DNA from: Candidatus Hydrothermales bacterium
GTDB taxonomy: Bacteria; Hydrothermota; Hydrothermia; Hydrothermales; JAJRUZ01
Assembly (NCBI GenBank): GCA_039630575.1
Contig: JBCNUW010000010.1
Location: 1 to 64,000, forward strand
Length of the DNA: 64,000 nt
Direction of reading: 5' to 3'
Part shown: positions 21,001-24,000 of the stretch, one piece after another
How positions within the stretch are numbered: position 1 is the stretch's first letter
Layout of the letters: each line of letters starts with the position of its first letter
Program-made: the position numbers

Positions 21001-24000
21001 ATGATAACATGAAGATAGAACTATAGTTATTTTGATTTTAGAATTTTGATCTTATTTATACGAGATTCAGAAGCATCAATTATTTCAAAGATATATTTTC
21101 CAATTTTTATTTTTTCTCCCTTAGTAGGAATTCTTTTAATTTTTTCAATAATGTAGCCTGCTGCTGTTATGATTTCGTTTTCTTCATTTATTTCTAACTC
21201 AATTAAATTAGAAAGTTCATCTATTGAAATTCTCCCTGAGACTATGTAACCATCTTTAACTTTTTGAGGTTTTTCAATCAGTTCTCTGTCAAATTCATCG
21301 ACTATTTCACCGACTATTTCCTCAACAAGATCTTCTAAAGTGACAAATCCTGTTACATTTCCAAATTCGTCAACAATTAGGGCAAAATGAATTTTCTTGT
21401 TTCTCATTTCCTTCAACGCCTCAAGTGCATTTTTGTTTTCTGTAAAGTAAAATGGAGCTTTCATAATTTCAGTAACTTTTTTGCTTTCATATTCTCTAAA
21501 ATCGATCAATAAAAGTTCTTTAAAAAAAAGAATACCTATCACTTCATCTTTATCCTCCTTTATTACAGGAATTCTTGAGAAGGGGTTTTCTCTAAATATT
21601 TCGAGTGCTTCTTTAATTGTTGCAGTATGCTTTATACATACCATATCTATTCTAGGAATCATTATCTCCTCTAATCTTCTCTCAGAAAGTTTTTTTATTC
21701 CCTCAATAAAGTCCTCTATTTTTTCCTTCTCCAGTGTTTTTGTTTTTTTATTTCTTTTGAATATTTTGAACATACTCTTTAATTAGGTTAAAAAGATTTT
21801 TATTTTCAGGTAAAACAATTCCTGCAGAAACTATAGCCTTTAAGGCTTCCTCAACAGAGAGGTCAAGATAAATAATTTTATCTTCAGGAACAATTAAATA
21901 CCAACCACTTGTTGGATTAGGTGCTGTTGGAATAAATATATTTAAATAATTTTTCCCATCAATTTGCCATTTGTTTTCAGAAGTAACAAAAGCAAAAGTA
22001 TAATTGCCCTCTTTAGGAAACTCAACAAGTATAACCTTTTTAAAAGCCGTTTTCTCTGAAAATATAGCATCAGTTAATTTTTTAGCTGCTGAATAAAAAC
22101 TTCTAATAAAAGGAAGTTTTGCTAAAAAACGCTCACCATAACTTAGGATTTTTTTACCAACTAAAGTTGTTACGAAGAAACCTACACCGTAAATGAAAAA
22201 TAAAGAAAGTATAAGTCCTATTAAGGTTGTGATTAAAACATTTTTTGTTTTAATTAATCCAACGTTAACTAAGAGTTCTCCTATGTTTGTGCCTAATATC
22301 TTTATTAAGAATAAGATTACATAAAGGGTTATAAAGAAAGGAAAAATTGCAACAATCCCGGTTATTAAATATTTCTTAATTTTAAAAACTACCTCCCCCT
22401 ATTCACCAACGAAAACTCTTACAAATTTATCAGATTCTGAAAAAGTTATTTTTATATTTTTTTTAAATGTTTTAGCAATACTTTTTCCAATTTTTTCAGC
22501 AAGGTGTTCTGTAGTTGTTTCGATTGTAATCTTGTCTCCTTCATCTTTTACACTAATTATTCTTTCAAGTGGATTATGGATATATTCATCTGCCGCGATG
22601 TGTTTTACTCGCGAATGGATTTCCTCATTTTTTTTACTTACAAATTCACCTTTTATTTCAACTATACCGAGAGGATATTTATCTTTAATTTTTCTACAGG
22701 CTGGACAATCTTTTTGTTCTATCCTTTTTTCGTTTTCTTTTATATTTTTCAATAGTTCCGAGTTATTAATCCATCTTTTTTTATGGTAAATAAGACCACA
22801 GCTTGGACATTGGGTAGGGTCTGAATACAAACTTTTATCCATGTATGGATCTTTCAATTTAAAAACAAATCTCTTATCAGAACCTCTCATTTTTACTCTC
22901 CCTTTTTAAATAAATAAAATTAATTTTATAAAATTTTCAAGTATTTTTACCATGACATTTTTTGTATTTTTTTCCACTGCCACACGGGCAGGGATCATTT
23001 CTTCCAACCTTTGGGATTTCTCTTTTATAAGTTAAATTTTGTGACACAGTTTTTATATCTTTATCGTTATTTTCCTTTAAAACACTTAAAGATCTCACAA
23101 GTTCTGGTCTTAACTCCCTTAATTTACTTACATCCAATCTTCTTTCTGCCTCCACAATTCTGCTATGAAAAATTCTGTGAATTGTTTCATTTCTGATTCT
23201 TCTTAAAAGTTCATCAAACATTTTGTAGGCTTCCTGTTTATATTCCAATAATGGATCTCTCTGTCCGTATGCTCTTAGATATATACCTTCCCTTAAGTTA
23301 TCAAGAGAATAGAGATGCTCTCTCCAAGCAGTGTCTAAGGTAAAAAGTAAAGCAGCTCTCTCAAGCTCTCTCATCCTTTCCTTACCAAAAATTTGCTCTC
23401 TTGCTTCATATAGCTCTTTAATCCTTTTCAAAATAAACTCTTTAATTTTCTCTTTTTCCTCTAAATTTTCTATTTCTGAGAAATCTGATAGAAAATGATA
23501 ATAAAGTTCAGATAAAAATTCATTTGTATTCCATTCTTCTTTATGTTCATCTTTTAAATACTTTTCAGTTAGCTCCTCAATTAGATCAGTGACATACTCG
23601 TTTAAAATAAGCTCCTTCATATCCTCTCCCTCGAGAATTTCATTTCTCAGTCCATAAATAACTTCCCTCTGCTTATTCATAACATCATCATATTCTAAAA
23701 GTCTTTTTCTTATTTCAAAGTTTTGCATTTCCACTCTCTTTTGAGCAGTTTCAAGAGCTTTAGTAACCAGTTTGCTCTCAATAGGTCCTTCATCTTTTTT
23801 TCCAAATCTTTCCATTAGTTCTTTTACCTTATCCGAGCCAAAAAGTCTTAAAAGATCATCTTCAAGTGAAAGGAAAAATTTTGTTGTTCCAGGATCTCCT
23901 TGTCTTCCTGATCTACCTCTTAATTGTCTATCTATTCTTCTTGCCTCGTGTTTTTCAGTTCCAATAATATAAAGACCTCCAAGTTCTCTTACCCCCTCTC

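Follow-up and report, generated by a model that had tools for sequence, protein, structure and literature searches.

A DUF502 gene without ATG, GTG or TTG and putative near-cognate start codons across the Hydrothermia

The window analysed here, a stretch of 64,000 nucleotides from a Candidatus Hydrothermales genome (G000), contains a conserved membrane-protein gene of the DUF502 family in the gene order secA, NMD3-like gene, DUF502, CBS/CorC gene, and, further along, a second gene for which a near-cognate start is proposed. The features considered are the following.

21748..22380, minus strand: DUF502 membrane-protein gene, 210 codons from the putative ATT start, with no in-frame ATG, GTG or TTG
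22378..22380, minus strand: putative start codon ATT, the exact codon being predicted from column conservation and Shine-Dalgarno (SD) spacing
22391..22399, minus strand: SD site GGGGGAGGT, overlapping the upstream TAG, with 10 nt from the T of GGAGGT to the ATT
22399..22890, minus strand: upstream NMD3-like Zn-ribbon protein gene with an ATG start, its stop lying 18 nt before the DUF502 ATT
21027..21773, minus strand: downstream CBS/CorC gene with an ordinary ATG start
29282..30391, plus strand: GT1 glycosyltransferase gene, the second case in the window, with a putative ATC start overlapping the upstream TAA (TAATC for TAATG)

The open frame at 21748-22398 (minus strand) comprises 216 codons between stops with zero ATG, GTG or TTG, just as the genome-wide survey's note had described it, and its product belongs to DUF502 (Pfam PF04367, E 1.5e-29); the 3' end of the gene overlaps the ATG of the CBS/CorC gene by 26 nt. 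A frame without a single canonical codon is in itself nothing unusual (P 0.002 per 209 codons); the evidence lies in the conservation of an N-terminus that has no usable canonical start. The gene is present in all six genomes of the family, and in each of them an isoleucine column just before a conserved KKY is encoded by ATT (four genomes), ATC (one) or ATA (one), preceded by a G-rich SD sequence at a distance of 4-11 nt (4-7 nt in four relatives). In the window this spacing is long (10 nt), so that the position of the exact codon is given by the alignment column. Outside the family the start of DUF502 is canonical in the five genomes looked at, with TTG in an order mate (G018) and ATG in G023, G012, G057 and G035. 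The earlier claim of ATT, ATC or ATA in six of seven genomes and TTG in the seventh therefore holds for the six members of the family, and the TTG of G018 falls three codons further 5', in a different column from the family's Ile codon. Comparison with five relatives gives a dN/dS of 0.06-0.17, and of 0.06-0.28 over the first 60 codons (four unsaturated pairs); the gene is under purifying selection, its N-terminus included. A read-through fusion from the NMD3-like gene into DUF502 was considered and rejected, because the two genes are in frame in three of the six genomes and out of frame in the other three. The five closest database proteins are 174-192 aa long and were all called short from internal codons, and the next twelve (34-46% identical) measure 205-231 aa; the top match carries the name Candidatus Hydrothermales. 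As for the GT1 gene, its first canonical codon comes 79 codons after the putative ATC, and the genus mate of G000 (G003) has ATA at that column.

The scale of the phenomenon in G000 was approached with comparison DNA from G003 (1.19 Mb), from a genome of another order (G057, 0.8 Mb), and from G027, which represents a third family, and G035 (0.4 Mb each). In G000, 1,590 genes were called from stop-to-stop frames, 1,214 of them with a homologue in the comparison DNA. The screen for conserved stretches without a canonical codon ahead of them returned 29 strict rows, made up of 16 intact genes, 9 false cases (2 tRNA overlaps and 7 of non-coding similarity), 3 frameshift fragments and infB, together with 13 overlap rows, of which 8 were false and 2 uncertain. 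Curation, in which start positions were chosen partly by eye, left 22 genes (17 strict and 5 likely) among the 1,590. The 16 intact genes, named partly from homologues and Pfam and partly from sequence motifs or the earlier note, are DUF502, cpoB, recO, yqgF, nfi, ogg, pgm, pilD, slt, a glcD-like gene, an ABC ATPase, two glycosyltransferases, a FemAB-like gene, a lipoprotein and a membrane protein; a peptidase C26, named by Pfam, is the seventeenth strict gene, and the five likely ones encode a DAG kinase, a metallo-hydrolase, an SNase-type nuclease, an FkbM methyltransferase and an HNH protein (the last identified by eye only). The figure of at least 14 conserved genes without an early canonical start, given by the survey, thus proves to be a floor. 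The screen detects 76% of canonical-start genes (512/677) and a quarter of the genes have no homologue, so that a fair estimate of the true total in G000 is about 30-40.

The putative codons previously proposed for these genes were found at their places: ATA in yqgF (C1:87651), ATT in recO (C23:101109), CTG in pgm (C34:21605), pilD (C20:18852) and the glycosyltransferase GT2 (C13:9852), TTA in nfi (C6:30023), and ATA both at C1:84206 and in cpoB. The exchange of near-cognate for canonical codons in orthologues could be followed between G000 and G003 for yqgF (ATA/TTG), GT2 (CTG/ATG) and C1:84206 (ATA/TTG), and in the opposite direction for pyrF (ATG/CTG), and does not extend to recO, cpoB, pilD and nfi, which are near-cognate in G003 as well (cpoB in two of the two genomes checked); about ten sites are near-cognate in both genomes. 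In pgm, pilD, the glcD-like gene and the peptidase C26 gene the Pfam domain begins upstream of the first canonical codon. Near-cognate initiation in many conserved genes is well supported, the exact codons being predictions from sequence. To speak of housekeeping genes, as the survey had done, was an overstatement, since none of the 22 encodes a ribosomal protein or translation factor and the set belongs to the faster-evolving genes.

It is very improbable that these frames hold no initiation sites at all and represent frameshift or read-through fusions, pseudogenes or assembly errors. True frameshift fragments do occur in the same screens (the three rows mentioned above), in 8 of 15 rows the phase relative to the upstream stop is identical in two genomes, and near-cognate sites seen in one genome only stand or fall with the assembled sequence. 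However, the phase differs between relatives for cpoB as it does for DUF502, where the low dN/dS speaks for a functional gene, and protein domains set in immediately after the codon, at profile positions 1-5. Signal-peptide-like N-termini, as read from the sequence, follow the codon in cpoB and in the nuclease, and pgm and the FkbM gene are preceded by tRNA genes, with no upstream ORF.

The context of the putative starts was also examined. They lie at most 20 nt from an upstream stop in 18 of 22 cases, compared with 413 of 677 canonical starts, a difference that is not significant (P 0.07); yqgF, which directly follows a TGA, is left out of this 18/22. Start and stop overlap as ATAA, ATAG, TAATC or ATTAA in place of ATGA or TAATG, and the 5-nt ATTAA overlap, observed at three G000 genes, is impossible with ATG, GTG or TTG. 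In G000, the SD is no stronger at near-cognate sites than at canonical starts (median scores 9.5 and 9, P 0.8), so that a canonical codon and a good SD are both missing at many sites, as weak proofreading would allow. Scores of 13 or more are reached by 6 of the 22 sites in G000 versus 4 of the 5 in G057, a genome in which overall SD use is higher (56% versus 35%); a strong SD, as present at DUF502 and at four of the five G057 sites, is not the rule in G000. Near-cognate genes show a lower median identity to G003 (63.6%, n=19, four of them near-cognate in G003 only) than the other genes (74.4%, n=842; P 1e-5), and none of the 19 reaches 80% identity, a level attained by 27% of the others; by start codon, the medians are 75.9% for ATG, 72.8% for GTG and 71.8% for TTG. 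This fast evolution would point to low expression demand. ATG makes up only 13% of the ATN codons in G000, which means that staying ATH needs no selection. This last figure argues against the idea that selection preserves the codons for purposes of control, with repair nucleases and envelope enzymes held low or made responsive to IF3 or ppGpp, an idea that is also at odds with the swaps of near-cognate codons with TTG or ATG within the genus and with the differing gene sets of the families (in G057 near-cognate starts are seen at tatD, degT and murJ, which have ATG in its kin). The roughly ten sites shared by G000 and G003 and the persistence of DUF502 in six of six genomes would fit with such control, S. 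aureus ccpN and cvfC1 work in this way according to PMC13009471, and ppGpp is described as penalising non-AUG mRNAs. On balance, selected control seems to us quite unlikely.

Rates were measured by one pipeline in four Hydrothermia genomes (22-66% of each) and in one outside replicon. Stop-to-stop ORFs were retained when no canonical codon occurred for at least 25 codons and an intact Pfam domain lay upstream of the first one; 86 of 106 rows were left out (infC, early canonical starts, antisense frames, fragments and rows with no Pfam hit, the last including cpoB, GT1 and the FemAB-like gene of G003 and three G035 rows). Near-cognate genes numbered 12/986 in G003, 5/592 (plus infC) in G057, 3/353 in G027 and 0/354 in G035, which, at detection rates of 0.47, 0.31, 0.40 and 0.12, corresponds to corrected rates of 2.6%, 2.7%, 2.1% and 0%, with only 1.0 gene expected in G035. 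The five genes of G057 are degT, tatD, murJ, a radical SAM gene and a TM1266-like gene, with ATA, ATT or TTA as codons. An earlier symmetric BLAST test, which before curation suffered from many false rows caused by wrong upstream limits, gave the same picture after curation by hand (G000 7-8/488, G003 6-7/331, G027 2/154, G035 0/182, and G057 2, plus infC, of 341). In the Hydrothermia, heat-loving bacteria of hot springs, near-cognate starts thus appear to account detectably for about 1% of genes, and for 2-2.5% after correction, far above model bacteria. With about 2,600 genes in S. aureus, the uncorrected counts exceed the level of that species in both G003 (P 8e-8) and G057 (P 0.002). According to 10.1101/063800, two near-cognate genes are confirmed in E. 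coli, and in model genomes ATG, GTG and TTG together make up 99.95% of annotated starts and others about 0.05%; in S. aureus, Ribo-RET identified four near-cognate sites, whose output was around 10% of that of AUG and as high as 30% at ccpN (PMC13009471).

It is conceivable, though doubtful, that AT-rich or thermophilic bacteria commonly have a rate of 1-2%, hidden by gene callers, the Hydrothermia being ordinary in this respect. B. subtilis has about 15 genes with near-cognate starts, the closest DUF502 homologues in the database were all called short, and the rate is flat over three families that differ in GC. Gene callers are moreover known to miss alternative starts routinely (PMC10682499). 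The few sites of S. aureus and the single annotated ATT of Synechocystis, itself doubted, speak against such a general occurrence, as does the 550-kb replicon pILYOP01 of Ilyobacter polytropus (GC 35%, detection 0.37), on which the pipeline, run without the Pfam scan, left 0/462 near-cognate intact genes, all 16 rows having been dropped by eye and by the record's annotation (IS3 orfB three times, a split GGDEF gene, antisense frames and normal starts). At the pooled rate 4.1 would have been expected (P 0.02), yet this is a weak control because it is a single replicon of a mesophile, not a chromosome, with 87% of its genes led by an SD. A wide occurrence among bacteria would be compatible with the mechanism proposed below.

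The survey had also connected the near-cognate starts with a weak IF3 peculiar to the order, and infC was for that reason followed across the class set of 64 Hydrothermia genomes. IF3 was found in 60 of them, with no match in the other four, and the infC start was parsed in 55 (10 of the order and 45 outside), five f11 loci being left out. Two observations behind the proposal were confirmed: infC starts at ATG in 10/10 genomes of the order, and the IF3 linker (Y75 to KEI) is short in the family, with 14 residues compared with 15 in f8g12 and G009, 16-18 in most others and 23 in f9. An ATG-started infC is not special to the order, however, since outside it 21 of the 45 parsed starts are canonical, 21 near-cognate and 3 ambiguous. 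The canonical ones lie behind an SD in f6 (ATG), f7 (TTG) and f8 (TTG, ATG or GTG), and the near-cognate ones are ATT, ATC, ATA and apparently ACG in f4. The infC ATG of family f1 has no SD. In f2, a family of the same order as G000, infC has ATG, the linker measures 16-17 residues and R25 is intact; G057 has ATT behind a strong SD and an IF3 that keeps R25 and Y75, and G035 combines ATG with R25Q. R25 of IF3 is described as invariant and as important for AUU discrimination in PMC9723500, and in E. coli loss of the residues R25, Q33 and R66 raises AUU initiation about fivefold. Across the class, R25 (E. coli numbering) is replaced by K in genus g1, A or T in f6, Q in f7 and Q or L in f8. R25K, Q33F and R66K occur together in 4/4 g1 genomes, R66K is common throughout, G001 and f2 keep R25, and Y75 is kept in 48/48 parsed IF3s. 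The 25 genomes that have lost R25 all have a canonical infC start, and the 21 with a near-cognate infC all keep R25, a match that amounts to about 2-3 independent events on the IF3 tree. Loss of R25 appears to track the loss of infC autoregulation and not the genome-wide near-cognate rate.

A weakened IF3 in the family or order, with its short linker, R25K/Q33F/R66K and an infC at ATG, could in principle have relaxed discrimination and let near-cognate starts spread. The residues replaced in g1 are those whose loss has the fivefold effect in E. coli, the R25/infC match is complete, and both the SD-less infC of f1 and the near-cognate sites of G000, mostly without a strong SD in contrast to those of G057, point in the same direction. 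Nevertheless, the match reduces to a few events, R66K is widespread, R25 persists in G001 and f2 and Y75 in all 48 parsed IF3s. A higher near-cognate rate where infC is canonical was the prediction, and it failed, at low power: G057, with ATT at infC and R25 in place, has the same corrected rate as G003 (P = 1.0), and the comparisons of G003, G027 and G035 with G057 (P 0.79, low power) and of f1 with the other three genomes (P 0.82) agree with this. G035, with ATG and R25Q, has 0/354, although only one gene is expected there. An order-specific weakening of IF3 is thus unsupported as the source of these starts and in our judgement unlikely. The counts are small (12, 5, 3 and 0), so that a two- to threefold effect of IF3 on the rate is still compatible with them and may exist.

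The other components of initiation that were checked, namely tRNA, 16S positions and methyltransferases, revealed no cause for a loss of fidelity. The 16S rRNA examined, that of G003, has the anti-SD CCUCCUU and matches E. coli in it and at positions 790, 926, 966-967, 1338-1339, 1400, 1413/1487 and 1498. The initiator tRNA keeps the three G-C pairs of its anticodon stem, and three CAU tRNAs (initiator, elongator Met and Ile2) are present in 5/5 family relatives and 3/5 f2 genomes, the elongator tRNA-Met being missing from the G000 assembly only. A single Met tRNA with recoding of AUA was rejected on account of these tRNAs and of a tilS-like gene, named from a sequence motif, at C34:22951. Loss of 16S methyltransferases was likewise rejected: rsmD has a match in 64/64 genomes and rsmH, rsmI, ksgA and rsmE lie above the cut-off in 5/5; rsmB-like genes are found in 5/5 with matches below it. 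The uS9 tail is intact and ends in SKR in G000 and G003.

We consider it probable, without being certain, that the Hydrothermia as a class tolerate near-cognate codons, which a normal fMet-tRNA reads at low-demand genes that are coupled or SD-led. This explanation starts from conserved N-termini under selection without a usable canonical start, from swaps between relatives and from a normal initiator stem, normal 16S positions and the presence of the methyltransferases. The ordinary fMet-tRNA (CAU) would read the mismatched codon in the P site with reduced efficiency, on ribosomes delivered either by re-initiation after an upstream stop (ATAA, ATAG, TAATC, ATTAA) or by an SD site. AT-biased mutation would convert ATG or TTG into ATT, ATA or ATC, less often CTG or TTA, and selection would tolerate such codons in genes expressed at a low level, such as those for DNA repair, nucleases, glycosyltransferases and envelope proteins. 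The cost of such a codon is probably lessened by growth at high temperature and by leaders that are A/U-rich and unstructured; in E. coli extracts AUA is an equal competitor of AUG, and AUU gains with temperature (PMC5499595), and excess IF3 inhibits SD-less re-initiation in E. coli (PMC2268962). The loss of AUU from infC and the decay of R25 would be separate, later events in some families and not the cause. More speculatively, AUA, AUU, AUC, CUG and UUA could be routine starts for 2-3% of genes on Hydrothermia ribosomes even without an SD, several lineages having then dropped IF3 autoregulation and the contact of IF3 with the tRNA through R25, and so moved by a natural route in the direction of the relaxed mitochondrial start code; we regard this as a doubtful possibility. 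If it were true, the Hydrothermia would possess naturally occurring IF3 variants of low fidelity, from which the purpose of start-codon proofreading could be learned.

The use of near-cognate codons and its mechanism are already known. In mitochondria and mycoplasmas many genes start at AUA, AUU or AUC, and Deinococcus is a further precedent. Unlike mitochondria and mycoplasmas, the bacterium studied here is free-living, with 1.9 Mb, three CAU tRNAs, tilS, three G-C initiator pairs and a normal anti-SD, and its starts are still about 97% canonical. E. coli infC and pcnB and S. aureus infC, ccpN, cvfC1 and citZ share with it AUU or AUA starts, a standard initiator tRNA and often an SD, but these cases amount to 2-4 genes per genome, conserved and with strong or extended SDs (10.1101/063800; PMC13009471), whereas G000 has at least 22, gained and lost between relatives, mostly without a strong SD and including CTG and TTA. 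As in known termination-re-initiation coupling (PMC2268962), the putative G000 starts lie only a few bases from an upstream stop and often lack an SD; the difference is that the overlapped start is near-cognate (ATAA, ATAG, TAATC) and may form the 5-nt ATTAA. The IF3s of g1, f6, f7 and f8, which lack R25 and whose infC is no longer AUU, resemble the E. coli fidelity mutants (R25A/Q33A/R66A and Y75; PMC9723500), but no higher near-cognate rate was found, K at position 25 is conservative and Y75 is kept. Searches of open-literature listings returned no report of this scale in a free-living bacterial class, of the ATTAA overlap or of the natural R25/infC pattern.

Near-cognate starts are generally regarded as limited to a few genes in each bacterium, and tens of them per genome would mean that this limit is not fixed. 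The Hydrothermia offer natural material for asking whether IF3, temperature, coupling or expression demand sets it, and the natural alleles behind the R25/infC pattern allow the IF3 feedback model to be put to the test. There is also a practical consequence, as gene callers truncate or drop such genes, and recO, ruvC, yqgF, cpoB, murJ and tatD may then be counted as missing or defective. One WOR-3 strain has been cultured (PMC12285271).

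At the level of initiation factor IF3, arginine 25 (numbered on the E. coli protein), which is termed invariant in the literature (PMC9723500), is replaced in several Hydrothermia lineages. Among the IF3 loci L007-L066, lysine occupies this position in g1, the genus of the source genome G000, alanine or threonine in family f6, glutamine in f7, and glutamine or leucine in f8, and every one of these replacements is accompanied by a canonical start of infC, the gene for IF3. In family f4 (L029, L034), infC apparently initiates at an ACG codon with a Shine-Dalgarno (SD) site upstream, and in genus g6 of family f3 (L014, L041, L042) a strong SD points at TTA/CTA, with an ATG lying three codons downstream.

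Further genes lacking ordinary starts were found in Hydrothermia genomes of other families. The pdhA-like gene of G027 (L156:11992, plus strand) is preceded by a GGAGGG SD, yet only AAG or TTC stands at the expected start position and the first canonical codon is reached 95 codons in. Another case comes from G057, a member of another order:
L206:3174-3443, minus strand, TM1266-like gene without any canonical codon; TTA start behind AAGGAG.
Just 5' of this gene terminates an ATG mini-ORF of seven codons with a strong SD.

Near-cognate starts devoid of an SD were also located immediately 3' of tRNA genes, both in G000 (C34:21607, C56:24640) and in G027 (L162:13830-14549); at all of these sites, tRNA processing could generate very short leaders.

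The initiator tRNA of G000 (C23:117253-117325) carries U11-A24 plus a U-U mismatch in its D stem, whereas the orthologue of its genus mate G003 has the usual A11-U24. tRNA-Asp, elongator tRNA-Met and the rRNA operon are absent from the whole G000 assembly; elongator tRNA-Met is present in its kin. On contig C46 of G000 (861 nt, 61% GC), the 3' end of a 16S gene is accompanied by another initiator-type tRNA, this one with A29-U41; since its spacer is dissimilar to that of G003, the contig probably does not belong to the bin.

Short start-less frames cluster in G000 at C5:41369-42923, C5:17528, C12:73816-74528, C56:17054-17992 and C7:11624-12196, a pattern resembling that left by gene frameshifts or by indels in the assembly. 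Outside the window, infB, the IF2 gene, has an early in-frame stop (ATG AAA AAA TAA, C11 about 8136-8147, plus strand). Sequence comparison places this TAA at codon 4 against AAA in G003, and the next ATG appears only after the IF2 N-domain motif has begun; the TAA stems from a slip in the assembly, or else the allele is a nonsense one that would depend on restart downstream.
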